From: Microgenomates group bacterium
GTDB taxonomy: Bacteria > Patescibacteriota > Microgenomatia > UBA1406 > GWC2-37-13
Assembly (NCBI GenBank): GCA_049304035.1
Contig: JBAQNR010000007.1
Coordinates: 4,548-68,547 of the forward strand
Reading direction: 5' to 3'
DNA length: 64,000 nt
The position numbers and the translations under genes were made by a program. Positions 4,188 to 58,137 of this stretch are shown in pieces (positions within the stretch are counted from its first letter, which is position 1; each line of letters opens with the position of its first letter). Under the pieces are notes generated by a model that saw only the letters and a list, made by a program, of their open reading frames with translations, was not told the origin of the DNA and did no database searches.

Positions 4188-4229
4188 TTTTCCTCCAAAA
4201 ATGTGAATAAAATCTCAGTTTTATCAATA

Positions 4230-7940: not shown

Positions 7941-7964
7941 TGAATAAAATAGTGTTTTTATTCA
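7941..7964. repeat. AT-palindrome family copy (perfect 9-bp arms)
   Basis: tgaataaaa-tagtgt-ttttattca. Confidence 0.7.
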
Positions 7965-8062
7965 TTCTCTTTGAATTCAGACCTATTCTTGGGCTCAAAA
8001 ATATCATCCCTGACCAGTCCTTTCCTGAAAAGAAAATCAATTATAAAAGACCATAGTTTCAT
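7958..8062 (-). CDS. 34-aa ORF translationally coupled to the radical SAM gene
   Basis: ATGA overlap with radical SAM stop (8062-8059); MKLWSFIIDFLFRKGLVRDDIFEPKNRSEFKENE; no SD of its own. Confidence 0.35.
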   Translation of the reverse strand: MKLWSFIIDFLFRKGLVRDDIFEPKNRSEFKENE

Positions 8063-9030
8063 TTTCTTTTTTCCTCCACCATATTATTATAATCCACGAG
8101 ACAATCTAAACAATTTTGTTTGCAAATTGGGTCGAGATGGGTATCGTGATTTTCACTCCAAATTTTTCTTTGTTCCAACATATTTTCATCAACTCTACCA
8201 ATTGGTTCGCCGCCCTCTCTCATGTGAATAACGCAAGGAAAATGCCAACTTCCGGCGACAACCGAATCATCTACAACCAAGTGACATTTTCTTGTATCAT
8301 TATCAGAAATTCCCCTAACATTTTTTCCAGATAGAAGATTTTTAACTCGATATTTCAAAATCGGATGTGCTTCTAAAATATAATCTGGAATTAATTCCAA
8401 CTTTGATAATGCACCATTGTATTGTGCCGCAGTAATAATCCGAATATCCGAAACTCCCAAATCGTGTGCGAATTTTACCACATCAACAACGGTTGATTGT
8501 GTTTCGTCCGTTAAAACAATTCCAACTGTTACATATGTTTCTTTTGAAAGCCATTCGATATTTGACGCAACTCTTTCAAAAATTCCTTTTCTACCACCGG
8601 ACATTTTTTCCGCATCTTCGGCACAACAGGCATCCAAACTAATTGAAAAATCATTTACGCCAGCGTCCAAAAGATTTCGGTACATTTTTTCTGGCATAGA
8701 ACCATTTGAGGAAATCGCAATTCTTTTTATTCCACCTTCTTTTGCAATTTTCACAAACTCAACAACATTTGGGTGCATTGTTGGCTCACCACCAGAGAAA
8801 CGAATGTTTTTCAATCCGCTTGAAATCCAACTATTCAAAACAGATTTCACAATATCTGGATGTAAATGTCCAGAACAATCCCTGCTGTATGCTTTTACTC
8901 CACGACAATATGGACATTTATAGTTGCACATTTCCGTAATAATAATTTCGCAACGTTCCATATTGAAGTGTTCTTTTATTGCTCTTTCGTCTGTCAATGT
9001 ATAAAATCCAATGTTAGATACCGAAGACAT
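8059..9030 (-). CDS. radical SAM enzyme (MoaA/viperin-like core, Cys-rich C-terminus), substrate unknown
   Basis: CNYKCPYC (CxxxCxxC), FSGGEPT, ISSNGS motifs; C-terminal CKQNCLDC; trimmed to ATG 9030 with AAAGGAG SD. Confidence 0.8.
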   Translation of the reverse strand: MSSVSNIGFYTLTDERAIKEHFNMERCEIIITEMCNYKCPYCRGVKAYSRDCSGHLHPDIVKSVLNSWISSGLKNIRFSGGEPTMHPNVVEFVKIAKEGGIKRIAISSNGSMPEKMYRNLLDAGVNDFSISLDACCAEDAEKMSGGRKGIFERVASNIEWLSKETYVTVGIVLTDETQSTVVDVVKFAHDLGVSDIRIITAAQYNGALSKLELIPDYILEAHPILKYRVKNLLSGKNVRGISDNDTRKCHLVVDDSVVAGSWHFPCVIHMREGGEPIGRVDENMLEQRKIWSENHDTHLDPICKQNCLDCLVDYNNMVEEKRK

Positions 9031-9292
9031 TTTCAAACTCCTTTTTTCTGAAATGTGTCCAACAAAACTCATTATCAATTATACACATTACTGCTACTTC
9101 GTTATTTTTTGGTCTACAAAACAATCTTCCTCCTTCACAATATCCAATGGCATATTTTCGTAAAACATTTGAATTTCTGATTATTTCAACTTCCCTACAT
9201 GCAACCCCTATTTCCCTCCATATTTTCAATCCCTGTCTCCACCTAGACCAATCGAAACTATCTGGTGGTATTTTCGGTATATAGTATTTCAT
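9014..9292 (-). CDS. hypothetical protein (92 aa)
   Basis: track ORF trimmed to ATG 9292 with CAGGAGAA SD; overlaps radical SAM start. Confidence 0.55.
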   Translation of the reverse strand: MKYYIPKIPPDSFDWSRWRQGLKIWREIGVACREVEIIRNSNVLRKYAIGYCEGGRLFCRPKNNEVAVMCIIDNEFCWTHFRKKEFENVFGI

Positions 9293-9664: not shown

Positions 9665-10198
9665 TTAATAATCCTGATACAAATCACGAAGTTTTTCCAA
9701 CCCCCCACTTCCAACGACTCGAAGTAGTTTCAATCCAATTTCACGACACTCATTAAAGATTTTTTCTGCTTTCCTAGAATCTTCCTCATATCCATAATTT
9801 CCACACCAATCTTCAAAATCGCATTCAACTGCATCTGAATCCAATGTCAGAGAATACATAACATCTACAATATCGGGTAGAATTGGTTTCTTTTTATTCG
9901 GAAGAAAATATCCACTTGAGAAAGTCCCCTTAGATTCGAATCCACTCTCACATTCTTGTAAAACCGCCTGTCTTTCATCATAAGATTGTTTGAACGCTCT
10001 TTTATACGAGGGGCAATGACCAGAACCCATTCCGTAATCCGTAGTCAAAAATTCTTTTCCGCGAATTAAAAGTGTTACCTTATAATTCAATGATGGATAC
10101 TTTTCTCCAGCATTTCGAGATAAACTCCATGGAACAAATTTTGTTGTCATGGACAATCCCATTTCGTCCAAAACGTTCCTAATCTCATCTTTTTCCAT
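9665..10198 (-). CDS. hypothetical protein (177 aa)
   Basis: track ORF; AGGAGAATAA SD. Confidence 0.65.
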   Translation of the reverse strand: MEKDEIRNVLDEMGLSMTTKFVPWSLSRNAGEKYPSLNYKVTLLIRGKEFLTTDYGMGSGHCPSYKRAFKQSYDERQAVLQECESGFESKGTFSSGYFLPNKKKPILPDIVDVMYSLTLDSDAVECDFEDWCGNYGYEEDSRKAEKIFNECREIGLKLLRVVGSGGLEKLRDLYQDY

Positions 10199-10208
10199 TT
10201 TTATTCTC

Positions 10209-10583
10209 CTATATTGTTTTTCCAGATTCCAATATTTCCCTAGTTTTTGCGGTTATCGGTGTTAATTCTATGTTTAAATAATCTCCACAAATTCTTTTTA
10301 CATCGCCCGGGGTTATTGTGTGAACTTCTGTTTCAAATTCATAGCAAGGATTCCCATGCTTATCGTCATAAATTCTTACGGAAACAGGAGTGTGTTTTGT
10401 AGAAATTGCATCGGCAAGGAGTGTTAGTATTCCAATCATTTCCAATTTTGAACTGCAAATAACTCGAAATTCACTTCCTTGCCACATCAACCACTGAAAA
10501 CAAACAGTGTGTGATTTGTGGTCGGGTGAATAATTACTATAAACCCATGTAAAATGTTTTCCATATGGACTTTTATATAACAT
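10209..10583 (-). CDS. hypothetical protein (124 aa)
   Basis: track ORF; AAGGAGAAAAC SD. Confidence 0.65.
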   Translation of the reverse strand: MLYKSPYGKHFTWVYSNYSPDHKSHTVCFQWLMWQGSEFRVICSSKLEMIGILTLLADAISTKHTPVSVRIYDDKHGNPCYEFETEVHTITPGDVKRICGDYLNIELTPITAKTREILESGKTI

Positions 10584-17112: not shown

Positions 17113-17134
17113 TGAATAAAATCAGCCTTTTATA
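17113..17134. repeat. AT-palindrome family copy
   Basis: tgaataaaatcagccttttata. Confidence 0.55.
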
Positions 17135-20646: not shown

Positions 20647-20670
20647 TTGATAAAATATTAGTTTTATTTA
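20647..20670. repeat. AT-palindrome family copy
   Basis: ttgataaaatattagttttattta. Confidence 0.6.
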
Positions 20671-21723: not shown

Positions 21724-21891
21724 TTAGAAAACTAATTCAACTTCATCCCAAGTGAAATATCCTACGCCAACCTTGAGTTCCACTTTAATAACTTCCTGCT
21801 CCAAAAAAAGACGAGCGGGAAAAGTTTCCACAATTGTTCCAATTTGCCCATGATTATAACATTCTTTCAAGATTTTTACTTTTTGTAACAT
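21724..21891 (-). CDS. small hypothetical protein (55 aa)
   Basis: track ORF trimmed to ATG 21891 with AAAGGAGAAAA SD. Confidence 0.5.
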   Translation of the reverse strand: MLQKVKILKECYNHGQIGTIVETFPARLFLEQEVIKVELKVGVGYFTWDEVELVF

Positions 21892-22343
21892 TATTTTTCT
21901 CCTTTCAATATATTCCTGATTTTCAACAATCTTGAACAAAATTCTCGTTGAGTTAAAACAGTGTGGCTTTCATCATTTTTTCCCATAGAATGAGTCAATG
22001 ACGAATTTCCAGTTGCCAGCAAAGCATTTTTGAAACTTGAATTTTTTGACAATTCAAAAAATGCCCTGTCTAACAAATCCTGATAATCTTGTGAATGACG
22101 ATTGATTTCTTTTCCCTGCCAAAATAATGTTTGAGTCTTCCACCATTTTTTTGGCTTTCCCTTAAATTTTGCTTGCTTTCCTACTAAAGTGCAAACAAAT
22201 TTTTGCATTTCCACATCCTTAAATTTCAAGGATTGCAGAAATCCTTCCATGGAATTGCATGGAATTCCGTCAATAATGAACGGATGCGGCGCAAAATTTG
22301 AGAGACTCGAAGCAGGAAAACCATTTCCGCTTCCAATATCCAT
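21891..22343 (-). CDS. NADAR (YbiA/DUF1768)-like protein, candidate ADP-ribose-processing enzyme
   Basis: LSNFAPHPFIIDGIPCNSMEGFLQSLKF ... ALLATGNSSLTHS parallels E. coli YbiA FSNFAAWPIKVDGKTWPTSEHYFQAQKF ... LLATAPAKLVEHT (from memory); trimmed to ATG 22343. Confidence 0.6.
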   Translation of the reverse strand: MDIGSGNGFPASSLSNFAPHPFIIDGIPCNSMEGFLQSLKFKDVEMQKFVCTLVGKQAKFKGKPKKWWKTQTLFWQGKEINRHSQDYQDLLDRAFFELSKNSSFKNALLATGNSSLTHSMGKNDESHTVLTQREFCSRLLKIRNILKGEK

Positions 22344-22354
22344 TTTTTTCTCCT

Positions 22355-22425
22355 TTTGGTTATATTTTGACTTATAAATATCCACAAACGAATTTGCGAA
22401 TATTTATAAATCCCCCTGAATAAAA
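22355..22425 (-). promoter_or_regulatory. class III element: GGGGGAT plus 17-bp AT-rich stem-loop plus AGTCAAAAT
   Basis: arms 22372-22388/22393-22409 with two non-WC positions, both G.U on minus RNA; atccccc at 22410-22416. Confidence 0.55.
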
Positions 22426-30719: not shown

Positions 30720-30748
30720 ATTATATCATACTATTCTTTTTAAGTCAA
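30720..30748 (-). promoter_or_regulatory. consensus extended -10 promoter (minus strand)
   Basis: TTGACT (30748-30743), 17 nt incl. TGa, TATAAT (30725-30720). Confidence 0.75.
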
Positions 30749-30791: not shown

Positions 30792-30820
30792 TTGACAAAT
30801 AATATATTTAATGATATAAT
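30792..30820 (+). promoter_or_regulatory. consensus extended -10 promoter (plus strand)
   Basis: TTGACA (30792-30797), 17 nt incl. TGa, TATAAT (30815-30820). Confidence 0.75.
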
Positions 30821-30853
30821 ATGGCAATATTTAATAAAAAGGAGCAACCATGG

Positions 30854-33594: not shown

Positions 33595-33616
33595 AAGAAA
33601 AGGAGGTCGTTTATAA

Positions 33617-36256
33617 TTGCGGAAACTACAGCAGTTTTATATCATGTCGTTGCAATCTGCAAGAATCAAGAAGGTTGGAAAAATAGTTTCAACACTTCAA
33701 GATGCGAGAAAAAATAACGAGATTATTTCTGCGGGCGACTCCCAGTTATTTCGGACGTTGAGAAAGGTGTCTAATCACCCCTATGAGGAATCCGAACTGT
33801 TGCGGTTGTGGAATGAAAGAACAAGATTAAAGAAAAAGAAAAACAAAAAAGAGAACGTAAGCAGGATGTCCGAACTTACCTCAAAGATTGACGAGATGTT
33901 ATTTGTTCCAGAGATTGTTTCCATAACCTTCAATCACGTTGCACACTACAAGCAATTTGTGAAAGAGGGCGTGTGGATAAATGGAACAAAATTTGTCCGA
34001 TTTATGGGTAGTGCGGGGCAATTGAGGCGTTCAACCGTCCTTTTTATTCAAGAACAATATTTGGAAAAGGTAAGAGAGATTATCGAGAACGGGTTCAATA
34101 AAGAGGTTCCAGTAAATTTTGGGAAGTTCAATGCGTACTACTCGCTGGTTTCAAGCAGTAGTATTCCTGTCTCGACGCCCAACTACGTTGTCATTCCAGA
34201 TTTGGAAGAAACAAGAGATACTGAGGTTGACTTTGTTGAAGACGACAATGAAACAGTAAACAGAAAAGTTCTTCCCATCGTTCACAATCTTTTTGATGGT
34301 GCTGGAATTATCTCCATGGATTTTGCAAAGCAATGGAGTTTCGATTTAGGATTGGATTATGATGCGTGTTCTTTTATTTTCAGGGCTCCTTGGTGCAAGG
34401 GTCTGTTGACTTCGTTTCCTTTTAGGACACTTGCTGCTGAACTCGGAGTTTCAGAGATTACCGATATTTATGGGGATGTTCACCAGATAGACAACGTTGA
34501 TGTTGTTATGACAAAATCCCAGTTTAAACTGAGTGAGGGGTATTCTTCTATTGCTGAACACAAAACAAACTCCCTAGAGAACAATCTATCTTGGAACGTT
34601 ACAAGAGTCAATCCGAATAAAGACAAAAAATCTTTTATGAGTTCCTACCAGTATATTCAGGTTCTCAAGGATGACGTAGATATAGAAAAACTATGCCGAC
34701 CAACATTGGACTACTTCAATGATGTGTCAATTTTGGACGGAGAAAAAGCGCTAATCTATTTGATGGGTTCTGATATAGAAGACGACTTGAAGTTCAACAA
34801 AATAGAAAATCCGATAGTGAAAGCGCTGTGTTTGAACAAAGATGTGATTCAAGACCCCCACATTAGAAAATCGATTATAAAAAGTCTCAACAGAAAGATA
34901 CGAGATAGTTACTTCGGAAAACTCCTGATAAGCCCAGGAAATTATCAGTTTGTTTTGTTTGACCCCTATGCGATAGCGCAACACGCCTTCGGGTTCGAGG
35001 CAACTGGTCTTTTGGGTGCAGGAGAGCATTATTCACAATACTGGAATAACATGGGCTCAAATCAGGTTGTTGCAGGCAGAAGTCCTTTGACATGGCGCTC
35101 AGAGATGTTGAGGTTGGACTTCAAGAACAACCAGAAGATGGAGAAATATTTTGGGCATCTGTATAGTGGAATAGTGTTTAATGTTCATTCGCCAGATATG
35201 ATGTGCCTTGCGGACGGAGATGGGGACGGAGACGCAGTATTCACATCCGATAATGACGAATTGTTGAAGAACTGTTATGGCGGGGTTCCTGTGACATACA
35301 ACAGAAAGGCGACAACAAAGAATAAAATTTCATACGATGAGTTGTCGGTTTTTGATGCAATGAGTTTTAATTCAAAGATTGGTCTGGTAACGAACAACAG
35401 TAGCACATACTATTCCATGTTGTCTTTATTTCCAGAAGATTCCAAAGAACACCAACTAATTCTAAAGAGACTTGTTATTTGCAGAAAGCAACAGGGAATG
35501 GAAATCGATAAAACAAAAGGTCTTCTTATCGACAGACTCCCAGAATGGAATAAGAAATCAGACGACCCAGTTCACAACAACATCCTGACAAATCGAAGAC
35601 CAATGTGGATGAACTGGCTCTACCCCCATAGAAAGAAAGATTACGACTCCTATAATGAAATGTACGATGTTTATTGCTACGCCAAATACGGGTTCGGTAT
35701 AGACTTTTTATTGAAGAAGGAAGTCGTCACAGAAGAGCAATCAAAAATTATAGAAAGACATAGGAAGTTTTGTCCAGTGGTTGTTGGTTCAACCTCTATA
35801 ATGCAGAGGATTTCAGATTACATGGTTTCAGAGGTAAAAGAACTTAAGGTGTCGGTAAACAACAAAGAATTTGACTATTCGGTATATTTCGATAAATCGG
35901 TTGGTCTAAACGAATCTATTCGTGAACCGCTAAGAGACTTGATGAAATTATATAATAAGTTGAAAAAGAACCTGTTCTTCTCTCCAGACGGAGAAAAATC
36001 GGAAATCGTAGAGTTCATAAAGAACAAGGCTTTTGAAATAAGTTCAGACTTGTCCGAATTGACCAATATGGCTCTGGATATAAACTATGGAACGGGATAC
36101 TCTCAGTCATTCGTGTGGGAAATATTTTCCGATGGAATATTGGACGCCATGAAAAAGAAAACCAGGACTTTTGATTTTCCTGTCCCAAAGGAAAACGGAA
36201 GGATTTCGTTTGCCGGAAGAAGGTTCAACATGGTAAAAGGTGGTGTCGATGAGTAA
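33617..36256 (+). CDS. YonO/RdRP-like two-barrel single-subunit RNA polymerase
   Basis: FIFRAPWCKGLL (compare FQIRxxGxKGvv of DPBB1 in cellular RdRPs) and VVAGRSPLTWRSE...IVFNVHSPDMMCLADGDGDGDAVFTS (compare RxPxxxxGD...DxDGD catalytic loop, related to beta-prime NADFDGD); AGGAGG SD 10 nt before TTG 33617. Confidence 0.7.
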   Translation: MRKLQQFYIMSLQSARIKKVGKIVSTLQDARKNNEIISAGDSQLFRTLRKVSNHPYEESELLRLWNERTRLKKKKNKKENVSRMSELTSKIDEMLFVPEIVSITFNHVAHYKQFVKEGVWINGTKFVRFMGSAGQLRRSTVLFIQEQYLEKVREIIENGFNKEVPVNFGKFNAYYSLVSSSSIPVSTPNYVVIPDLEETRDTEVDFVEDDNETVNRKVLPIVHNLFDGAGIISMDFAKQWSFDLGLDYDACSFIFRAPWCKGLLTSFPFRTLAAELGVSEITDIYGDVHQIDNVDVVMTKSQFKLSEGYSSIAEHKTNSLENNLSWNVTRVNPNKDKKSFMSSYQYIQVLKDDVDIEKLCRPTLDYFNDVSILDGEKALIYLMGSDIEDDLKFNKIENPIVKALCLNKDVIQDPHIRKSIIKSLNRKIRDSYFGKLLISPGNYQFVLFDPYAIAQHAFGFEATGLLGAGEHYSQYWNNMGSNQVVAGRSPLTWRSEMLRLDFKNNQKMEKYFGHLYSGIVFNVHSPDMMCLADGDGDGDAVFTSDNDELLKNCYGGVPVTYNRKATTKNKISYDELSVFDAMSFNSKIGLVTNNSSTYYSMLSLFPEDSKEHQLILKRLVICRKQQGMEIDKTKGLLIDRLPEWNKKSDDPVHNNILTNRRPMWMNWLYPHRKKDYDSYNEMYDVYCYAKYGFGIDFLLKKEVVTEEQSKIIERHRKFCPVVVGSTSIMQRISDYMVSEVKELKVSVNNKEFDYSVYFDKSVGLNESIREPLRDLMKLYNKLKKNLFFSPDGEKSEIVEFIKNKAFEISSDLSELTNMALDINYGTGYSQSFVWEIFSDGILDAMKKKTRTFDFPVPKENGRISFAGRRFNMVKGGVDE

Positions 36257-37004
36257 AAAGGCATCCAGAATAATCTTGGATGAAGAAGCAGAAGCAGAAA
36301 GATTGTTTTCCATTGTTCCAACCTCTATCCGCTATAAAGATATTTTTATTATGGCAAAATATCTTTATAGCAAAGGGGAAAACACAATGTCGGTAAAAAA
36401 CAAACTTTTGGGTTATTGCGAATCCTCTGAGACATATAACTATGTGGTAGAGGGAAACACGCTTGATTCTGCGATAAAGAACGCCAAGTTATACGACATA
36501 AAAAAATCTGGGCTAAAGATAGGGATAACCAAAAAAGAAACCGATATTCTTGGAAAACTAAGCCACAGAGATTATCGAGTTGCCTTGTATATATTATATG
36601 TTTCAAAATTAGAAAAATATCAAAGTTCAGACGGAGATAAGAATAAGCCAAAAAGATTTGAATGTTACTTTAGCCATGGAATTGAGGATGCGGTAAAAAG
36701 TTGCTCGAACACAAAGATGAGCAGGAACGCCATTTATGATTTGTCACACAGGTTATTTTTGGCAAACGTACTGGTTCCAAAAATTGGAAGAAACTGGGTA
36801 TATTGGGAGGTCATTTGTTCGGATTTTGACAGTAAAAAATTCGAATTCATAATTGATTCCTCTTGTGATTTTAACTCCCAAATACAATATTATTGCGTGA
36901 ATTGTGGCAAAAAACTAGAAAAAAAGTCAAAAATGCATGAGTTATGTGACGAGTGCCACAGTACACAAGTAAAAGAAAAAGACAGAATCAGAAAGTCTTT
37001 GTGA
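36249..37004 (+). CDS. hypothetical protein with C-terminal zinc ribbon (251 aa)
   Basis: ATG 36249 with GGTGG SD, overlaps RNAP stop; CVNCGKK...CDECH. Confidence 0.6.
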   Translation: MSKKASRIILDEEAEAERLFSIVPTSIRYKDIFIMAKYLYSKGENTMSVKNKLLGYCESSETYNYVVEGNTLDSAIKNAKLYDIKKSGLKIGITKKETDILGKLSHRDYRVALYILYVSKLEKYQSSDGDKNKPKRFECYFSHGIEDAVKSCSNTKMSRNAIYDLSHRLFLANVLVPKIGRNWVYWEVICSDFDSKKFEFIIDSSCDFNSQIQYYCVNCGKKLEKKSKMHELCDECHSTQVKEKDRIRKSL

Positions 37005-37058: not shown

Positions 37059-37418
37059 GTGGTAAATAAAAAGAAAAGTGAGAAGGAATTTCTCGACACG
37101 GATAGTTTTGTAACCGTCTTGGCTCAGAAAGCGGGGTTTACAAAAGGAGACATAAAGGTTGTAATAAACACCTTTAAAGATATTTTAGAAGAGTGCGTAA
37201 AAAACGACATTGATGTTGACCTGAAGGGACTCTTCCATATGAGCGTGATTGATATTGAATATACAAAACCACCCGGAATTGTCGCATTTAAGGGCGGAAC
37301 GGATTTCAATAGGAACGCGAAAAGGGTCAAGTTTGTGACACCCTTAAATCTACGCGATATTGCGAAGGCAAGTTCGGAGAAACAAAACAATGAATCTTCT
37401 AACCGAGAGGTTGTGTGA
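37059..37418 (+). CDS. HU/IHF-family DNA-binding protein
   Basis: FVTVLAQKAGFTKGDIKVVINTFKDILEECV...VDLKGLF...RVKFVTPLNLRD matches the HU fold pattern; GTG start with AAAGGAGA SD. Confidence 0.65.
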   Translation: MVNKKKSEKEFLDTDSFVTVLAQKAGFTKGDIKVVINTFKDILEECVKNDIDVDLKGLFHMSVIDIEYTKPPGIVAFKGGTDFNRNAKRVKFVTPLNLRDIAKASSEKQNNESSNREVV

Positions 37419-37593: not shown

Positions 37594-37614
37594 ATAAAAT
37601 GGTAATTTTATAAA
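37591..37614. repeat. AT-palindrome family copy (plus-arm)
   Basis: tgaataaaatggtaattttataaa; TGA is the stop of 37390-37593. Confidence 0.6.
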
Positions 37615-37937: not shown

Positions 37938-37966
37938 TTGACTTATTTCAGTTCATATGATATAAT
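37938..37966 (+). promoter_or_regulatory. consensus extended -10 promoter (plus strand)
   Basis: TTGACT (37938-37943), 17 nt incl. TGa, TATAAT (37961-37966). Confidence 0.75.
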
Positions 37967-38010
37967 TGCCTTAATTGGCATATTATCCGTATAAAAAAGG
38001 AGATTTATAA

Positions 38011-39360
38011 ATGCAGAAAAAGTTATATGATGATTGTAAAGCTAAAGAGGACGGCTCTCTCGACATTACATGGTCGGAGTTAGCATCGAGATATAATATT
38101 TTCTCTGGGAAGATTCTTTCAGATAGATGGTACCGTATAAAATCGAAACCAAATCCGGAACTCGAAGATGTAGAAGATATTTCTTCTAATCCAGTGAAAC
38201 AATCTCTTGAAAACTTTTTTGAATCACAGCCAGACGTTATTGACGATGACTTAGATGACGATACTCCAGAATACAAAGAAACTATCGAAATGAAATCAGA
38301 TGGCTCTATGTATAGCGACAGGCTTATCGAGATTTGTGAACAAGATTTGAAATCTCCAAGGTCAATCCTCATCGCTCACAAGTTTGACCCCGAACTGTGG
38401 GAGGTTGTAAACTGTAAAAACAATCTTTGGCACTCTCCAAGGGTGAAAGACTTAGGATTGAGAGTTTTATACCAGTCAAAGCTCACCACCAAACCGAGAA
38501 TTCCAGAATGGACGGAAGAACGATTGCTGTCAATGTTTGACTCTTTGGCCGCCAAAGATTTTTCTCCTGTGGAAATTCTTCCATCTTCTTATTCAATCAA
38601 TGGAAAATCACTCGTCATTCCAATTGCGGATTTGCACATTGGGCTTCTTGCGACAATGCAGGCGAATAACAATGAATATAATATGGAGATTATGGAAAAA
38701 CTATATCGTTCAACCATATCTCAAATAAAAGAACGTGTATCAGGACAGAAATTTGAAGAGGTGGTGTTTGTTGTTGGAAACGACTTTCTAAACACAGATA
38801 ATCTCGCAAATACAACTTCTCATGGAACACCTCAAGATAGCGCCACATTTTGGTATTCTATCGTAGATAAGGCAATTGAACTGATTTCTGTTGGAATAAA
38901 CAGTTTTCTAGAGATTGCGCCCGTATATGTTTATAACATCGTTTCAAATCACGACGGTCAATCTATGTACGGCGTTATGAAAGTTATTGAACAGATGTAC
39001 AAGAATAATAGGTATGTTCATATTGATGTGTCTCCTCTCCCGAGGAAGTATCATCAGTTTGGTAGAACCCTGTTGGCGCTTACGCATGACATGAAGATTG
39101 CAAAAGGTCTTGAGACAATGACCGTGGAAGCAAAAGATAAATGGAGTGAGTGCAATAAATTCTATTGGATTTTAGCACATCTTCACACTGAGATGCAATA
39201 TCAGAAAAGTGGACTGATGGAAATCTATCGGGTTCCAACTATCTCTGGATATTCCAGATGGTCTAACGACAAGGCTTTTGTTCAAACAGAAAAAAAGACA
39301 CAGTGCTTCGTTGTTGACGAAGAAAGCGGCATTGTGGACACAATGTATATAATCGTGTAA
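38011..39360 (+). CDS. calcineurin-like metallophosphoesterase-like protein (449 aa)
   Basis: ordered motifs IADLHIG, VVGNDFLN, VSNHDG, LTHD, LAHLHTE resemble DxH / GDxxD / GNHD / H / GH blocks (second block has N for D). Confidence 0.45.
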   Translation: MQKKLYDDCKAKEDGSLDITWSELASRYNIFSGKILSDRWYRIKSKPNPELEDVEDISSNPVKQSLENFFESQPDVIDDDLDDDTPEYKETIEMKSDGSMYSDRLIEICEQDLKSPRSILIAHKFDPELWEVVNCKNNLWHSPRVKDLGLRVLYQSKLTTKPRIPEWTEERLLSMFDSLAAKDFSPVEILPSSYSINGKSLVIPIADLHIGLLATMQANNNEYNMEIMEKLYRSTISQIKERVSGQKFEEVVFVVGNDFLNTDNLANTTSHGTPQDSATFWYSIVDKAIELISVGINSFLEIAPVYVYNIVSNHDGQSMYGVMKVIEQMYKNNRYVHIDVSPLPRKYHQFGRTLLALTHDMKIAKGLETMTVEAKDKWSECNKFYWILAHLHTEMQYQKSGLMEIYRVPTISGYSRWSNDKAFVQTEKKTQCFVVDEESGIVDTMYIIV

Positions 39361-39436
39361 TTTATTTTTATTGACCCTTTTATTCTAGGGGGAAATTTAC
39401 TTTTAGCCTCACGTACCAAGAGTACGAAGAGTTCTT

Positions 39437-39475
39437 AATACCCACACTTTTGAATAAGTGTGGGTATTTTGTTAT
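39437..39475 (+). terminator. rho-independent terminator
   Basis: perfect 13-bp stem 39437-39449/39456-39468, followed by TTTGTT. Confidence 0.7.
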
Positions 39476-39581: not shown

Positions 39582-40586
39582 ATGTCAGGAAAAAGCAGAA
39601 GAATTAGTTCAACACTGTCAGTTGGTGTTGGAGATAAACTTTCAGAAGAGCATGGATACTGTCGCAAATGTACGACAATAAAAAAGGGGGTTGATTTTTA
39701 TGCGGCTACGGATAAATTTTTAGATACGAATGGAAAGTTTTCTGTATGTAAAGCATGTGTGTCTGATATTTTTGTTGGATTTTTAAACAGCGAAAGAGAT
39801 GTAAAGAAAGCGATGTTTTTAACTTGTAAGACTTTGAATATTATGTATTCAGAATCTCATCTTGAAGCCGCAATATCTCAACTATCCACAAAGATGGGCT
39901 CCGAAGCGAATATTGATTATTCTAAGTTATTTGGTATATATAAGACCAAATTAGTCACAATTACATCTGCTTCTGGGGATGGTTCAGTTGGAACATTTGA
40001 ATACAATCCCGGTTTAACATTTAATCAGGAAGATGAACAGATTATATCTGACAATGAAGGTGAGGATTTTGCTAATTATTTAAAGAAGACCTGGGGTTCT
40101 GGACTCAGTATTGATGACTATGATTTCTTGGAAAGCACACTTGCGGAATGGCAGTCTACGCACAACTGCAATACAACCACAGAACTTCACCTTATGAAAC
40201 TTATTTGCCATGCCGAATTAGATATTCGCAAAGCAAGAGAGACCGGTGGTGATACAAAATCCATGGTGAAGGCGCTTCAGGATTTAATCAAAACAAGCAA
40301 TCTGTCTCCTGCCCAATCAAGTATGAGTTCCATGAACAAATCACAAGAGGCGCTCGGGGTTAGACTTAAGGAAATTGAAGAACTCGAGCCGTTAGAATGG
40401 TTGGAAAAACATAAGAACCCATTCGAAGACGTTGATAATCTATCACAATATCTTGATGATTTTATAGCAAGACCAATTAGAAATCTTATTACCGGTTCTC
40501 GTGATTTTAATATTAAATCGGTTGATGAAGACGGAAGATTTGACATAGAGATTAGGGAGCCGGAGGACGAGGGGGATATTTTATGA
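39582..40586 (+). CDS. putative terminase small subunit (334 aa, N-terminal Cys4 element)
   Basis: position immediately upstream of and ATGA-coupled to the large terminase; CRKC...CKAC; no family motif recognised. Confidence 0.4.
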   Translation: MSGKSRRISSTLSVGVGDKLSEEHGYCRKCTTIKKGVDFYAATDKFLDTNGKFSVCKACVSDIFVGFLNSERDVKKAMFLTCKTLNIMYSESHLEAAISQLSTKMGSEANIDYSKLFGIYKTKLVTITSASGDGSVGTFEYNPGLTFNQEDEQIISDNEGEDFANYLKKTWGSGLSIDDYDFLESTLAEWQSTHNCNTTTELHLMKLICHAELDIRKARETGGDTKSMVKALQDLIKTSNLSPAQSSMSSMNKSQEALGVRLKEIEELEPLEWLEKHKNPFEDVDNLSQYLDDFIARPIRNLITGSRDFNIKSVDEDGRFDIEIREPEDEGDIL

Positions 40587-42394
40587 GCATTCAACCCGGC
40601 GCGATAACTTCTCAGCAGAGAAATAACGAGAGAAGACAAAACCCTCTTCTTAGACCAAAATTCATGGTCAAATCAAAAGAAGTAACAGAAGAGAAAAGAA
40701 AAAGACTTATAAGATGGGCTATATTCTATAGAAGAAACACCCATAGATTTGTTGAGCACTATCTTGGAATAAAACTTTACCCATATCAAAAACTTTGGAT
40801 TTATATGATGGGAATAAAGGACTCTATGGTTTCTGTTGCAGCACGTTCTTCCGCAAAGACATGGCTTATTGGTGTGTATGCAGTTGCAAGATGCATCCTT
40901 TATCCAAACAGTAGCGTTGTCATTGTGAGTTCTACTTTGGCTCAAGCGGCAATTATTCTATCCGAAAAGATACGGGGGCTAATAAATGACTATCCCGCAG
41001 TTGCAAGAGAAATAGAATCCATTACGGTAGGTCAAAACAAGAACGAGGCAATATTCTATAATGGTTCAACCATTAGGGTTTGTGCCAGTAGAGACTCTGC
41101 TCGCGGGGCACGTGCAACTTTTATTATTGTGGAAGAGTCGAGACTTGTAAATCTTGATATTCTTAACAGTGTTATTAGACCGTTCGCGTTTGTTAGACCA
41201 ACGCCATATTCAAAACTAAAAAAATACTCATACCTTCCTCCAGAAGAACCAAAAGAGATGCATATTACATCTGCACATTATTCATCTGGTTGGTGGTATA
41301 AAGAAATGCTTGTTGCAATCAAAAACATGCTTCAAGGGAAAAATGTTGGATTCTTCGCAACGGACTATCTTACCGCAATTTTTCATAAAATAAAGACAAA
41401 GGCGGTAATTGAAAAAGATAGGGAAGTCATGGATGAAATAACTTTTCAACATGAGTATCTGAATTTGAGTTCTGGAGAGTCTAGCTCAAGTTATTTCAAG
41501 AACAAAATGTTTCAAAAAAATAGAAGTATGAAAAAATCATTTTATCCTCTGAGACCAGAAGAATACGCGAATAAAAATCAAAAGTCTTCTCTTCCTAAAA
41601 AAGAGGGTGAAATCAGGGTGGTTAGTGTTGATATTGCTACACGCGCAGGAAAGCAAAACGATAATTCTATTTTATCTTGCTTTAGATTATTTCCTACTAC
41701 AAAGGGATATGAAAAAGAAGTTCCTTATATGGAATCTCATTCTGGCTCAAACACTGGCATTCAGGCTCTTAGGGTAAAACAATTGTTCTATGAGTTCGAA
41801 GCAGATTACATTGTACTCGATGTGGCCAACGCGGGAATTTCCGTGTATGATTCTCTCACGAGTATTACTCATGATTTAGAAAAGGGAATTGAGTATCCTG
41901 CGATGACATGTATGATTCATCCGTCAATATCAGAAAAAATGTACGACGACCTAAAGAACAGAACGATTGGATTGAACGCTCTACCTGTTATTTATCCTAT
42001 TTATGGTTCATCTCAATTGAACTCTGACATTGCGGTTCAGATGAGAAACTCCCTCCAGAGAAAAACAATAACATTTCTCGTGGGAGAAAATGATGCAGAA
42101 GACTATCTTTCTAAGAATATCAAAGGATATTTGGACGCGGAGGATAGTGAGACAAGAGCCAACGCCCTTTCACCATTTGTTGAAACGGGTTTATTTGTAT
42201 ATGAATCAATAAATCTATCTATGACCATAGTTTCGGGGCTTATCAAATTATCGGAACCACCCGGAAATAGAAAAGATAGGTATACTTCGGTTTCATATGG
42301 AAACTACTTTATTTCCATATTGGAACAGGATTTATTAAAAGAATCTGAGCCAAACGATTTGGAAGATTGGCTGAATTCAACAGTTACTTGTTAA
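40583..42394 (+). CDS. terminase large subunit
   Basis: 603 aa; Walker A-like AARSSAKTW, Walker B FIIVEES, C-terminal RNaseH-like VVSVDIATRAG; position before the head genes. Confidence 0.7.
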   Translation: MSIQPGAITSQQRNNERRQNPLLRPKFMVKSKEVTEEKRKRLIRWAIFYRRNTHRFVEHYLGIKLYPYQKLWIYMMGIKDSMVSVAARSSAKTWLIGVYAVARCILYPNSSVVIVSSTLAQAAIILSEKIRGLINDYPAVAREIESITVGQNKNEAIFYNGSTIRVCASRDSARGARATFIIVEESRLVNLDILNSVIRPFAFVRPTPYSKLKKYSYLPPEEPKEMHITSAHYSSGWWYKEMLVAIKNMLQGKNVGFFATDYLTAIFHKIKTKAVIEKDREVMDEITFQHEYLNLSSGESSSSYFKNKMFQKNRSMKKSFYPLRPEEYANKNQKSSLPKKEGEIRVVSVDIATRAGKQNDNSILSCFRLFPTTKGYEKEVPYMESHSGSNTGIQALRVKQLFYEFEADYIVLDVANAGISVYDSLTSITHDLEKGIEYPAMTCMIHPSISEKMYDDLKNRTIGLNALPVIYPIYGSSQLNSDIAVQMRNSLQRKTITFLVGENDAEDYLSKNIKGYLDAEDSETRANALSPFVETGLFVYESINLSMTIVSGLIKLSEPPGNRKDRYTSVSYGNYFISILEQDLLKESEPNDLEDWLNSTVTC

Positions 42395-47390: not shown

Positions 47391-47414
47391 TAAATAAAAC
47401 ACGTATTTTATTCA
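47391..47414. repeat. AT-palindrome family copy (plus-arm)
   Basis: taaataaaacacgtattttattca. Confidence 0.6.
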
Positions 47415-49167: not shown

Positions 49168-50147
49168 ATGGATTTGAGGTAAGCACCAACACCTACGCCG
49201 TTAAAGAACTGCTTGGACTTGGCGGATCAATCACCAACAATACGGGCGCAACGGGAGCAGATGGATTCCTTCCAAAAATAGGTAGATGGCTAAACGTCTA
49301 CAGCCTTGACAGATACGCCGTCACCAACAAAGGGATTGATGGCAAGGACTCCTGGTATAGCCTGATACGACTGCAAACAGACGTTATTGACCTTGCGCCA
49401 GATTTGATTATTTACGACTGCGCTATCAACGATAACGACCAGTCGCCTTATGCAAAATGCGAGGAAGCGGTAATCCGCAGGCTAAGAACTGCCCTGCCAG
49501 ACGCGAAAATAGCAGGCATTATTTTCGGGACAACTGCCAACAGGCTCGGAACTGACCCAACCAACACAAAAGCAACAACAGCGGCGCAGGTGCGGGAAAT
49601 TCTCACACATTATGGGATTTTATATGCAGACCAAACTGCCGCCGTTGTTACTAGTGTTAACGCAGGCACTTATACACTCGCTCAAATATTTGCAGACACC
49701 ATCCATCCCGCTGATGTAGGTCACTTGCTAGGCAAACAAACTTTGGATGATGTAATTCCAACGGCATTAACCCAAACATTGCCTTCCCTGCCTACACCAT
49801 TGCATGATACTGCCGGAGATTATTCTCAAACCCCAATAATTAGAGTCGCAAATGATAATGATGGCGAGACGGGTGTATGGGCAGAGAGTGGAACAGACGA
49901 GGCATCAAGTACCGCAGATTCAACAATCACATGGACAGGAGCATTTTCAAGTTTTGGATTTGATACTGGATACGGAGCCTCGCAAACATATGCATGGCAA
50001 ATAGATGGCGGAGCATGGACAAATGTTTCTCCATCCACAGTGGGATATACCAATAACCTGCTATGGAGTGGAGCGCGGGGAGCACATACTGTGGTTGTGA
50101 AAGTTGTAACTGGAACCATTACGGTTAAAAGATTTTTAGCTGTATAA
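49164..50147 (+). CDS. SGNH/GDSL-type hydrolase domain tail protein (putative esterase)
   Basis: IIYDCAINDN (GxND block) and ADTIHPADVGH (DxxH block); ATGA-coupled to the previous gene. Confidence 0.55.
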   Translation: MNGFEVSTNTYAVKELLGLGGSITNNTGATGADGFLPKIGRWLNVYSLDRYAVTNKGIDGKDSWYSLIRLQTDVIDLAPDLIIYDCAINDNDQSPYAKCEEAVIRRLRTALPDAKIAGIIFGTTANRLGTDPTNTKATTAAQVREILTHYGILYADQTAAVVTSVNAGTYTLAQIFADTIHPADVGHLLGKQTLDDVIPTALTQTLPSLPTPLHDTAGDYSQTPIIRVANDNDGETGVWAESGTDEASSTADSTITWTGAFSSFGFDTGYGASQTYAWQIDGGAWTNVSPSTVGYTNNLLWSGARGAHTVVVKVVTGTITVKRFLAV

Positions 50148-50163
50148 AATAAGCATTTTATTA
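50143..50163. repeat. AT-palindrome family copy (plus-arm)
   Basis: tataaaataagcattttatta. Confidence 0.5.
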
Positions 50164-50217: not shown

Positions 50218-51858
50218 ATGGCAAATACAAAAACAATTAAAAAGAAAGTTGCCCCTCCTCAAGAAAAAAAAGTTCTTTTAACAGAGCAGGAAACGTGGGA
50301 TGTCTTGCGGTTTGCATCTGAGTTATATGGCGGACAGATGGGATATAATCCCATGCTTGTAAATGCAAGAATGCAAGACATGACAATGAATATAAAGAAT
50401 GGAACAAGCGTTCAAATAGACGCGGCTCTCGCTGAACCAAAATTGAATGAGGCTTTTCTTACTGGACAATCTGAGTTCTTTGAATTAACGTCGATGCTGT
50501 ATAAGCGTATATTGTATTATCTGAGCGGAATCCCCGCTTTTGATTTTACTTATACTTGTACAAATGCAACTGATAAGGATTATAAGTCCCCCGCGTATAA
50601 AAAAGATTTAGAAGCAGTAAAAGAATTTTTTGATAAATTCAATCCAAAACAAGAGTTCAGAACAATTCTAAAGCAAATGGTTCGTCAAGAAACATTTTTT
50701 GGATTCTTCAGAGATGATGGGGAAAGATATTTGTTTCAGGAGATTCCAGAAAATTATTCAATGATAACTGGTCGTTGGGAAAACGGATTGCTTTGGGATT
50801 TGAACATGTATTTATTTTTACAACCCGGATTTGTTCTCGATATGTTTCCTGATATTTTCAAGAAATTATGGAAGAAAGCGTTTGGTAATAAACAACCCAA
50901 GGAAATATATGACCCCGCTACCGGCGTTGATAAAAGAGATTCTTCTTGGATTTACTGGGTTCAGACATCACCAAAAGATGGTTTTTGGTGTTTCAAACTG
51001 CAACCAGAACTAGCAACGAGAATTCCTTTCTTAGCACCAATGTTCCCAGATGTTGTTTTACAAAAAACAATGCGGGAATTGCAAACCAACACCTATATTG
51101 CAGCTGCGTCGAAGATAATCTCGGGTCGTGTTCCCATGCTGAATAAAGACACGAAAGCGGCGGTGAGAGACAGTGTTGCTATTTCTCCAGAGTTGCTTGG
51201 AAAATTCCTTGCTCTTATGAAATCAGGTTTATCTGATGCAATCAAGGTAACCTCAAGCCCATTGGAAGACCAAGCGGCAATTGAGTTCTCCGGTGCCGAT
51301 TCTGATTTTTATCAGAATTATTTAAAAACAACAACCTCATCTTCTGGTGTGAACTCACGCTTGATTTACACTCTTGATAAGAATAATGCGGTTGAATCAC
51401 AACTATCAATTAACGTTGATGAGTTTTTGATGTTTGGTTTATATCCTCAGTTTGAAAATTTCTTAGATTATCAAACGAACAAGTTGACAAAGAAATTTAA
51501 GTTTAAATTCAAATTTGAAGGTAGTGAATTCTATACCAATAGAAAAGAGAGATTTGATACTCAGATGTCTCTTATTCCTTTGGGTATAGTTATGCCACAA
51601 AAAATTGCGGCGGCTATTGGAATGTCTCCATTTGCTTTTATTAGACAAATTGAAGAATCAAAAGCAATGGGATTTACCGATATGCTGACTCCAATAGAAA
51701 CAGCGATGGGTGGATTGGCTGGAGCGGGCGGAAAAACGAAAGGGTCAAACCCATCGGGCAAAGAAGGAGCGCCTAAAAAAGATGCTTCGGAACTGAGTGA
51801 AGGTGGAGAAAATACTCGTGACGCCGCAGGCAACGCTGGACGTGGGGGAGATGAATAA
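50218..51858 (+). CDS. putative portal protein (546 aa)
   Basis: size and position at the start of the head module; Gly-rich C-terminal tail; no motif-level support. Confidence 0.5.
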   Translation: MANTKTIKKKVAPPQEKKVLLTEQETWDVLRFASELYGGQMGYNPMLVNARMQDMTMNIKNGTSVQIDAALAEPKLNEAFLTGQSEFFELTSMLYKRILYYLSGIPAFDFTYTCTNATDKDYKSPAYKKDLEAVKEFFDKFNPKQEFRTILKQMVRQETFFGFFRDDGERYLFQEIPENYSMITGRWENGLLWDLNMYLFLQPGFVLDMFPDIFKKLWKKAFGNKQPKEIYDPATGVDKRDSSWIYWVQTSPKDGFWCFKLQPELATRIPFLAPMFPDVVLQKTMRELQTNTYIAAASKIISGRVPMLNKDTKAAVRDSVAISPELLGKFLALMKSGLSDAIKVTSSPLEDQAAIEFSGADSDFYQNYLKTTTSSSGVNSRLIYTLDKNNAVESQLSINVDEFLMFGLYPQFENFLDYQTNKLTKKFKFKFKFEGSEFYTNRKERFDTQMSLIPLGIVMPQKIAAAIGMSPFAFIRQIEESKAMGFTDMLTPIETAMGGLAGAGGKTKGSNPSGKEGAPKKDASELSEGGENTRDAAGNAGRGGDE

Positions 51859-51875
51859 AATCAATATTTTATTCA
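51852..51875. repeat. AT-palindrome family copy (plus-arm)
   Basis: tgaataaaatcaatattttattca; TGA is the portal stop. Confidence 0.65.
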
Positions 51876-56965: not shown

Positions 56966-56994
56966 TTGACATATTAGAGATAGTGTGTTATAAT
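56966..56994 (+). promoter_or_regulatory. consensus extended -10 promoter (plus strand)
   Basis: TTGACA (56966-56971), 17 nt incl. TGt, TATAAT (56989-56994); flanked by direct repeat TTATAATT(T)AAG at 56953 and 56988. Confidence 0.75.
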
Positions 56995-57040
56995 TAAGTT
57001 ATCAAAGCAGATAGAATCCTTGGACGCAGGGAATTTCGAC

Positions 57041-57077
57041 AAGGGGTTTGTGCCTCTTCATAAACCCCTTCTGTTTT
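57041..57077 (+). terminator. terminator/attenuator hairpin between promoter and HNH gene
   Basis: 9-bp stem aaggggttt/aaacccctt, 12-nt loop, followed by CTGTTTT. Confidence 0.55.
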
Positions 57078-57105
57078 GAAATATTATAATAAGAGGATTA
57101 TAAAA

Positions 57106-58137
57106 ATGACAATGGGAAAAAGAAAGACAAAAAAAGAGATTCAATCCCAAATAGATTTGATGCATGGTGTCGGAAAAATTAAAATAACAAAATACACTGC
57201 CGTTAGGAACAAGGGCGGCTTCAAGTGTTTAGTTTGCGGGCATAGATGGACAACTTTTGTCGCCAACGTTATAAAAAGAACGGGTTGCCCAATATGTGCC
57301 ACCGATGGTCTTCGCCTTTCAATGGATGAGGTAAGAAAAATTGTTGAAGACAACGGAGCGGAACTTATATCTAAAAAATATAAGAACACAAAAGAACACC
57401 TAAAAATAAAATTTACAGAATGTGGACATGTTAGAAAAATGTCTCTGTATGCAATCCAACAACGACAAGGATGCAAATGCCGAGCCCAAGATAAATTCAA
57501 AGAAACATTGTCGGAAAAATGTTCCGATAAATTAAATGTTATTTTAAAAGAAAAGAACTATGTTCTACTCAAAAGAGAAGCCATCATGAATTGGGATTCT
57601 TTTATATCTTATAAATGCGATATTGGACACATAGTAGAAAATCAAACATATAGAGATTTTTCAAGAAGAAAAAAATGCAAACAATGTTGCCAAGATTCTT
57701 GGGGAGAAAAACAAAGAGGATGTCTCGGAAACAATTGGAAAGGTGGGATAACATTTTTTAGAATCCATGCTCGAAAATATTTGACCCAATGGAAAAAGGA
57801 TTCTATGAAAGAATCTAATTATAAGTGTATAATAACCGGTGACAGATTTGATGACATACACCATTTATATTCCATGGACAAAATATTACGGGACGCACTT
57901 TATGAACTAGGAATTGACATGAGAGAGTTCGTAAAAGACTATTCCCAAGAGGAAATAGATGCTGTTTCCAAAAAAATAGTCGAACTTCACGATTCCCATC
58001 CTCTGGGTGTTTGCCTGAGAAAAGATATTCACGCTTTGTTCCATAGTGTTTATGGATATGGAAATACCGACGAAGTTCAATTTTATGAATTTAAAGAAAA
58101 AATAAAATCCGGCGAAATTATAATACCGGAAATATAA
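57106..58137 (+). CDS. HNH homing-endonuclease-like protein with N-terminal zinc ribbons
   Basis: CLVCGHRW...CPICA repeats; C-terminal ITGDRFDDIHHLYS ... DIHALFH HNH-like; ATG 57106 with AGAGGA SD. Confidence 0.55.
   Translation: MTMGKRKTKKEIQSQIDLMHGVGKIKITKYTAVRNKGGFKCLVCGHRWTTFVANVIKRTGCPICATDGLRLSMDEVRKIVEDNGAELISKKYKNTKEHLKIKFTECGHVRKMSLYAIQQRQGCKCRAQDKFKETLSEKCSDKLNVILKEKNYVLLKREAIMNWDSFISYKCDIGHIVENQTYRDFSRRKKCKQCCQDSWGEKQRGCLGNNWKGGITFFRIHARKYLTQWKKDSMKESNYKCIITGDRFDDIHHLYSMDKILRDALYELGIDMREFVKDYSQEEIDAVSKKIVELHDSHPLGVCLRKDIHALFHSVYGYGNTDEVQFYEFKEKIKSGEIIIPEI

Follow-up and report, generated by a model that had tools for sequence, protein, structure and literature searches.

The stretch of DNA analysed here (the window, 64,000 nt of contig JBAQNR010000007.1) carries an open reading frame (ORF) of 879 aa that encodes a member of the YonO / RdRP-like two-barrel family of RNA polymerases, and it is this enzyme, its neighbours and its likely role in phage gene expression that are considered below. 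Judged by its gene content, the window comes from a tailed phage of the SPbeta type. Rightward of the polymerase gene there follow, in order, genes for a zinc-ribbon protein and an HU-like protein, two small ORFs, an exonuclease gene, a YonG-like gene, the genes for the terminase large subunit and the portal protein (50218-51858), and the tail genes. The corresponding genes of SPbeta, yonO, yonN (HU), yonK, yonJ (exonuclease), yonG and yonF (terminase), follow one another in an order that matches the window, and the gene order of phages BUCT082, PMBT24, TR-TP1 and Perkons is similar. The terminase gene is found 4-9 kb 3' of the polymerase gene in 61 of 83 related loci. A megablast search against isolated phages returned no DNA-level match to the window, and the best protein match in an isolated phage, from Bacillus phage BUCT082, has 31.6% identity over the full length. 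An earlier reading of this DNA, made from the letters without database searches (the sequence-only reading), had stated that zinc-ribbon and HU-like proteins follow the polymerase; both are encoded there, the first bearing a C-terminal CxxC...CxxC arrangement (Table 1).

The polymerase gene, its active site and its fold

The polymerase ORF is uninterrupted, and a TTG codon at 33617 is well supported as its start by the surrounding sequence. A ribosome-binding sequence, AAGGAGG (33600-33606), lies 10 nt 5' of this codon, and the N-terminal peptide KLQQFYI (aa 3-9) forms part of the majority consensus in a family alignment of 68 polymerase homologs that are 34-54% identical. The NCBI model of the gene (P0001, 870 aa, labelled "hypothetical protein") begins at an ATG (33644) that has no ribosome-binding site and lies 27 nt 3' of the TTG. 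Because of the spacing of AAGGAGG and the conservation of KLQQFYI we prefer the TTG; the NCBI model is probably 9 codons too short, and the gene limits given in the sequence-only reading hold and are to be preferred to it. Residue numbers refer to the 879-aa protein (870-aa numbering plus 9).

Membership of the YonO / RdRP-like two-barrel family, which the sequence-only reading had proposed, is established at the levels of sequence, active-site residues and overall fold. The Pfam family RdRP (PF05183) matches residues 108-648 and covers positions 55-559 of its 582-position model; the score of 58.5 bits exceeds the gathering cut-off of 23.8 (E=6.8e-16). It was the only family reported for the polymerase in a Pfam scan at E<=0.1, in which the T7-like RNA polymerase domain was not reported. 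PHROG 8308, a family of no known function, is matched at E=3e-114. Comparison with SPbeta YonO by BLASTP gave E=1e-38, with 27% identity across 529 aa plus a C-terminal segment, and a tblastn comparison of the two gave E of about 1e-28. A phmmer search of PDB with the single polymerase sequence yielded nothing meaningful, and profile and fold searches were needed.

The active-site motifs of both barrels could be aligned with those of characterised enzymes. The peptide FIFRAPWCKGLL (aa 253-264, nt 34373-34408) pairs in the BLASTP alignment with FMVRLPWVKGLL of YonO, and the RSP motif and Asp loop, which lie within VVAGRSPLTWRSE (aa 484-496, nt 35066-35104) and IVFNVHSPDMMCLADGDGDGDAVFTS (aa 519-544, nt 35171-35248), pair residue for residue with RSP and DNDGD of YonO. 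The polymerase motifs likewise pair with PSAFQIRYGGYKGVI and GGDLDGDLF of maize RDR2, and the family profile aligns with RDR2 at DGIGKIS, FQIRYGGYKG and DLDGD. The motif resemblances quoted in the sequence-only reading are, on these alignments, not due to chance. Nine positions, D227, R256, K261, R488, P490, D535, D537, G538 and D539, are invariant among the 68 homologs. Eight residues are invariant in all two-barrel RNA polymerases, being D709, R738, K743, R962, P964, D1007, D1009 and D1011 in QDE-1 (PMC2919709), and all eight have counterparts here, namely D227, R256, K261, R488, P490, D535, D537 and D539. Their spacing is near that of QDE-1, with identical D-29-R-5-K and R-x-P (2) intervals and with 47 rather than 45 residues from R488 to D535. 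Across the family the consensus of the loop is DSDFDGD, and this polymerase reads DGDGDGD; because of that consensus, the alignment assigns the catalytic triad to the final three Asp, D535/D537/D539. The Mg-binding loop recognized in the sequence-only reading is borne out by the alignments, with its triad corrected to these residues.

An AlphaFold model of the polymerase has a predicted local distance difference test score (pLDDT) of 92 and a predicted template-modelling (pTM) score of 0.88. When the model was compared with PDB by Foldseek, a check that the sequence-only reading had itself suggested, the top 21 matches were all plant RDR2 or fungal QDE-1 (E=1e-20 to 1e-14, probability 1.0, template-modelling (TM) score about 0.5, ~900 aligned columns), and the weaker matches after them were for the most part largest subunits of the beta-prime type. 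RDR2 and QDE-1 (PDB 2J7N, 7W82, 7ROZ) are thus the best structural matches and share the eight invariant residues at near-identical spacing, but their identity to the polymerase is 12-15% and they have no phage context. QDE-1 and RDR2 use RNA templates in silencing pathways and carry extra eukaryote-specific domains. The virion RNA polymerases of crAss-like phages (for example phi14:2 gp66) belong to the same two-barrel superfamily and were matched weakly (E=1e-5 or weaker, TM 0.25 or lower), as were, marginally, the beta-prime chains of the multisubunit enzymes (E above 0.01, TM below 0.1). The crAss-like RNA polymerases are huge and packaged in the virion, and the beta/beta-prime enzymes are multisubunit, whereas the enzyme of the window is a 100-kDa protein whose gene lies behind a host-type promoter. 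A T7-like (right-hand, Pol-I-like) polymerase was rejected on the grounds that RdRP is the sole Pfam family and that the fold matches are two-barrel enzymes, as the sequence-only reading had maintained.

The name of the Pfam family raises the question of whether the protein is an RNA-dependent RNA polymerase, the name given in GenBank to its homologs from PMBT24, Perkons and TR-TP1 and the activity of its nearest solved relatives, RDR2 and QDE-1. We regard this as highly improbable. The GenBank names are carried over from the Pfam label, the gene resides in a double-stranded DNA phage with YonO-like synteny, and YonO, in the published account the only phage member tested, is a processive DNA-dependent RNA polymerase whose Asp triad is essential (PMC5467207). 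By analogy, DNA is probably the template of the window's enzyme as well.

The polymerase is new and divergent, but it belongs to a family that is known and has been characterised in part; it is not surprising in itself, and its presence alone was to be expected. Where the sequence-only reading remarked that few members have been characterised, the family is both characterised and common, with 278 relatives in IMG/VR alone. No smaller relatives of cellular RNA polymerase are known than the YonO-type enzymes, which have come under discussion as models for the single-chain ancestor of that polymerase.

Several relatives have an interrupted polymerase gene. Locus L089, the closest relative of the window, has its gene broken exactly within the catalytic loop, between DSD and FDGD, by a 312-nt insert devoid of ORFs (L089 8655-8966). 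The ends of this insert, U...G, resemble those of a group I intron; an Rfam search of the insert gave no match, and no group I intron model fits it. Other homologs are split by inserts of 0.5-3 kb, among them CST179/CST178 of phage c-st and the genes of L051/L053, L059 and L071.

Host-type promoters and the presumed late boundary

The sequence-only reading had placed a host-type consensus promoter ahead of the polymerase operon. This promoter, P1, is found at exactly that position, agrees with the sigma-A consensus at 12 of 12 positions and carries the TG extension. Both its -35 box and its extended -10 box are conserved in L089, where the spacer has diverged. Because the boxes are kept despite this divergence, the comparison supports transcription of the polymerase operon by host sigma-A RNA polymerase, as the same reading had suggested. 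A second promoter of this type, P2, lies ahead of the exonuclease gene, and L089 shares its -35 box, its -10 box, the palindrome that follows and the leader, although the genes downstream are non-homologous between the two phages. The palindrome, TGCCTTAATTGGCA, is perfect, lies directly 3' of the P2 -10 box, is both conserved and duplicated in L089, and has the look of an operator. After the P1 -10 box, too, there is a half-site, TGGCAA (30822-30827).

Between the exonuclease gene and the genes for packaging and structure lies a conserved non-coding block of 110 nt. Its conservation in L089 is about 85% (nhmmer E=3.6e-10), the alignment shows compensatory changes and the fold z-score is -3.2. 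The block is a candidate for the region in which late transcription starts. Iterated nhmmer searches recovered the block in the window and in L089 only. When 16 intergenic regions of the window were used for family-wide footprinting with nhmmer, matches were again confined to L089, at three regions. The core of the block, CTCACGTACCAWGAGTACGAAGAG, is single-copy in the window and, L089 aside, absent from the other polymerase-bearing loci, and because of this the block was rejected as a general promoter of the phage polymerase. The core does recur in three other loci (two of them from one phage), including a site inside a tRNA array. The core at 39408-39431, CTCACGTACCAAGAGTACGAAGAG, has exact copies in settings unrelated to this one, namely in L091/L092 and within a 21-tRNA array of L093; the invariance of the core among these recurrences follows by construction from the exact-match search. 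An Rfam scan of the window gave no match.

Transcription by YonO starts at a single late site between yonN and yonK (PMC5467207). By means of the published primers, this site could be bracketed to about 9997-10240 of the SPbeta locus (L001), and placement at the nucleotide level was not reached. SPbeta has here a 1.7-kb non-coding gap in which a DUF3800-VIII RNA lies as well as the start site used by YonO, whereas the window has two small ORFs and a sigma-A-type promoter. The DUF3800-VIII RNA, detected with Rfam at L001 11096-11161, lies 3' of the primer-bracketed interval. BUCT082 carries this RNA too (L002 8632-8697), and the window has no counterpart.

A zinc-ribbon partner and a proposed role in late transcription

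The gene immediately 3' of the polymerase gene, whose ATG overlaps the polymerase stop codon by 8 nt, encodes a 251-aa zinc-ribbon protein that we refer to as the partner. With an iterated profile, 80 of 84 sources were found to have a partner homolog 3' of the polymerase gene; among the loci with room downstream, SPbeta is the sole exception. Phages c-st and PMBT24 also have homologs, as do L089 and L090. The partner start overlaps the polymerase stop or lies within 10 nt of it in 64 of 71 non-identical loci, and the exceptions carry insertions. The mean divergence of the partner across related loci is 69%. Pairwise distances of polymerase and partner are correlated at r=0.96 (partial r 0.95 when terminase is controlled for), compared with r=0.50 for polymerase and terminase. 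The partner family comprises 507 cluster representatives at E<=0.001, and the best 150 of these are all standalone proteins of about 250 aa, with no fusion and no rearranged gene order. No homolog was found among the 631 ORFs of the whole SPbeta genome (best match E=0.05, 8 bits), nor, at the profile level, in Perkons, TR-TP1 or 0305phi8-36, the ORF downstream in TR-TP1 giving a weak hhalign hint (32% probability).

In the partner model (pLDDT 88), a C4 zinc ribbon comes after elements that are helical and winged-helix-like. Over ~100 residues its fold is locally similar to the winged-helix DNA binders Fur/PerR, ORC/Cdc6 and RTP, and Pfam gave weak zinc-ribbon matches only. Identification as a TFE/TFIIE-like protein, as Fur/PerR or as RNA polymerase subunit P/Rpb12 was rejected, there being no significant sequence or fold match to any of these; RpoP was rejected at 23 bits in NCBIfam against a cut-off of 63, and SENP1 on a profile match (E=9e-5) that covers only the N-terminal part of the protease domain and has no fold support. 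The literature searched held no description of the polymerase-partner pairing. The conserved module of polymerase and partner, which the only system studied lacks, amounts to a modest novelty. The earlier suggestion that the zinc-ribbon and HU-like neighbours could be accessory factors gains comparative support from this pairing and from the synteny of the HU-like gene, which is kept in BUCT082, PMBT24, c-st, Perkons, TR-TP1 and even SPbeta (yonN). A role for the partner as a polymerase cofactor is plausible on such comparative grounds, and the HU-like protein may also have a role.

We consider it probable, taking these observations together, that the enzyme is a YonO-type DNA-dependent RNA polymerase with two double-psi beta-barrels which is expressed by the host, transcribes the late genes of an SPbeta-like phage and works with a partner protein. 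Host sigma-A RNA polymerase would start at P1 and transcribe an early/middle operon comprising the polymerase, the translationally coupled partner and the HU-like protein, with P2 driving the exonuclease gene, and this host transcription would stop at the terminator-like hairpin at 39437-39468, the presumed boundary. The phage polymerase would then transcribe the packaging, structural and lysis genes rightward as a long unit, on the analogy of YonO. In the enzyme itself, D535/D537/D539 together with D227 would hold the catalytic magnesium ions, and R256, K261 and R488 would contact the substrate. The most likely function of the partner, given its winged-helix-like body, its zinc ribbon and its constant place beside the polymerase, is one exercised jointly with that enzyme, such as promoter finding or opening.

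Transcription of the genes to the right of about 39.4 kb is the most likely role of the polymerase, and this follows from its homology to YonO and the shared gene order. YonO is essential for its phage and transcribes 37 late genes that form one operon (PMC5467207). The two proteins are of similar size (839 aa for YonO, 879 aa here), their active-site motifs align, and both genes head a rightward string of genes that runs into the structural genes. They differ in that their identity is low and in that SPbeta has no partner homolog.

Several observations weigh against this interpretation. A promoter for the phage polymerase was not found across the family: the late-boundary block is shared with one polymerase-bearing relative, L089, and its core occurs elsewhere in three fragments that have no known polymerase gene. 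A perfect sigma-A promoter (12 of 12 positions, with TG) is present at 56966, amid the structural genes. Foldseek gave no significant match of the partner to any PDB entry (best E-value 0.1). YonO works in vivo although SPbeta has no detectable partner homolog. Finally, adjacent genes that are inherited together are also expected to co-vary tightly, and linkage alone could account for the correlation of the two proteins. The promoter at 56966, the sole other perfect one on the right arm, drives an HNH endonuclease gene (57076-58137), and the two together (56966-58137) are apparently a self-contained mobile insert.

Some of these points bear on a narrower alternative, in which the polymerase is as described and its zinc-ribbon neighbour is not a cofactor but an independent DNA-binding regulator, or has some other early function and is kept in place by linkage. 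Because YonO functions without a homolog (PMC5467207), the partner is not intrinsically required by this class of enzyme, and the winged-helix similarities of the partner are weak and local. This alternative has to explain, however, why the pairing persists in every related locus with room for it while the partner itself has diverged so far, why its start codon overlaps or abuts the polymerase stop in most loci, and why it keeps its place even in loci with a split polymerase gene or with other genes inserted. The standalone form and constant order seen in the best 150 representatives also argue against it. We hold it to be possible, though decidedly less probable than a partner that acts with the polymerase.

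A second alternative concerns the target of the enzyme. An oriented inverted repeat, TGAATAAAA-N4-6-ATTTTATTCAYA, is present in 34 core copies in the window, for example at 4207-4224, 7944-7961, 17116-17133 and 20650-20667, and further at 37594-37611, 47394-47411, 50144-50161 and 51855-51872. The phage polymerase might mainly transcribe the many small genes of the left arm instead of the late operon, using this repeat as a hairpin-type promoter, possibly with the help of the HU-like protein. Sites of the repeat number 40, compared with 8.7+-2.9 expected; they are intergenic, run in the direction of the genes and stop 0-10 nt short of the ribosome-binding site, and 28 of the 34 core repeats lie on the left arm, which has few strong sigma-A promoters. 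Against this, one copy lies 5' of a gene pair that includes the polymerase gene itself, and in L089 a copy lies directly 5' of the polymerase gene; the exact motif is not enriched in other polymerase-bearing loci; YonO has one late start site; and a hairpin acting at the RNA level or an operator would fit the data equally well. We judge this alternative unlikely. Promoter, operator and RNA hairpin are all possible identities of the element, and as it is not enriched in relatives, a link to the polymerase was not established.

Returning to late transcription by a polymerase with a partner, the arrangement matters chiefly for the question of how YonO-type enzymes find their promoters, which was posed in 2017 (PMC5467207). 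Every one of the ~80 closest loci, as well as c-st and PMBT24, belongs to a partner-bearing branch, in which a zinc-ribbon protein that is absent from the phage of the studied enzyme co-varies with the polymerase. The partner is a concrete candidate for a promoter-finding factor, and the module a testable handle on initiation by minimal polymerases. We suggest, as a tentative idea that may well prove wrong, that most YonO-family phage polymerases are two-protein machines, in which the adjacent winged-helix/zinc-ribbon protein serves as a promoter-recognition or DNA-opening factor (compare sigma, TFB and TFE), with SPbeta YonO as an atypical partner-less case; in this phage, the sites recognised by the two proteins, possibly joined by the HU-like protein, might be AT-rich inverted repeats that form structures, or else the hairpin block at 39361-39475.

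Phage BUCT082 offers a way to approach these questions. It has been placed in the genus of SPbeta, and its polymerase is 25% identical to YonO, yet it has a partner. Its proteins UAW07825 and UAW07826 show the same polymerase-partner-HU arrangement as the window; unlike the window, BUCT082 has SDFDYD as its catalytic loop and contains a DUF3800-VIII RNA, and both proteins are annotated as hypothetical. Because its host is B. subtilis, BUCT082 can act as an experimental proxy, and a single genus of B. subtilis phages thus provides a natural, testable comparison between SPbeta, without a partner, and BUCT082, with one.

Remaining features, relatives and host

The features of the window are collected in Table 1.

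Table 1. Positions of the genes and sequence elements discussed, and the evidence on which each assignment is based
Feature	Position	Strand	Evidence
Divergent sigma-A-like promoter toward helicase gene and left arm (TTGACT, 17-nt spacer, TATAAT)	30720..30748	-	11/12 with TG extension
Sigma-A promoter P1, heading the polymerase operon (TTGACA at 30792-30797, 17-nt spacer, TGaTATAAT)	30792..30820	+	12/12 with TG extension
YonO-family polymerase ORF, 879 aa	33617..36256	+	Pfam, PHROG, BLASTP, AlphaFold, Foldseek
First (beta-like) barrel active site: D227 in FDGAG, R256/K261 in FIFRAPWCKGLL	34295..34408	+	invariance, RDR2 alignment, QDE-1 spacing
Second (beta-prime-like) barrel: R488-x-P490, Mg-binding loop D535-G-D537-G-D539	35066..35233	+	invariance, YonO and RDR2 alignments
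Conserved 251-aa partner: helical/winged-helix-like body, C-terminal C4 zinc ribbon (CVNC at aa 216, CDEC at aa 233)	36249..37004	+	profile, junctions, model
HU-like DNA-binding protein, positional counterpart of SPbeta YonN	37059..37418	+	Pfam Bac_DNA_binding E=3.3e-5, PHROG 379
Sigma-A-type promoter P2 (37938-37966: TTGACT, 17-nt spacer, TGaTATAAT) and palindrome TGCCTTAATTGGCA (37967-37980)	37938..37980	+	11/12 with TG extension
Exonuclease / metallophosphoesterase-like protein, position of SPbeta YonJ	38011..39360	+	PHROG 704 E=2.7e-55, synteny
Conserved non-coding block with three hairpins, the last (39437-39468) terminator-like	39361..39475	+	nhmmer, alignment, folding, terminator scan
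YonG-like protein, first gene of presumed late operon	39582..40586	+	PHROG 3314; PF27269 YonG_N on L089 homolog
Terminase large subunit, next in presumed late operon	40583..42394	+	terminase PHROGs

Among isolate genomes, relatives are confined to prophages of Bacillota. Relatives in metagenome-assembled genomes (loci L098-L116) carry the labels Patescibacteria, Woesearchaeota, Treponema, Bacteroidetes and others, and the contig of the window itself, which at 130,778 bp is close in size to an SPbeta genome, is labelled 'Microgenomates group bacterium'. Because the isolate relatives all come from Bacillota and the labels of the assembled genomes are scattered across many phyla, these phage contigs are likely to have been mis-binned, although the phage of the window may have a host from the candidate phyla radiation (CPR).

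The left arm of the window has many small ORFs without known function. Among them are, both on the minus strand, genes for a radical SAM protein (8059-9078, Pfam E=3e-24) and a T4 gp30.3-like protein (21891-22385, E=1.5e-54).

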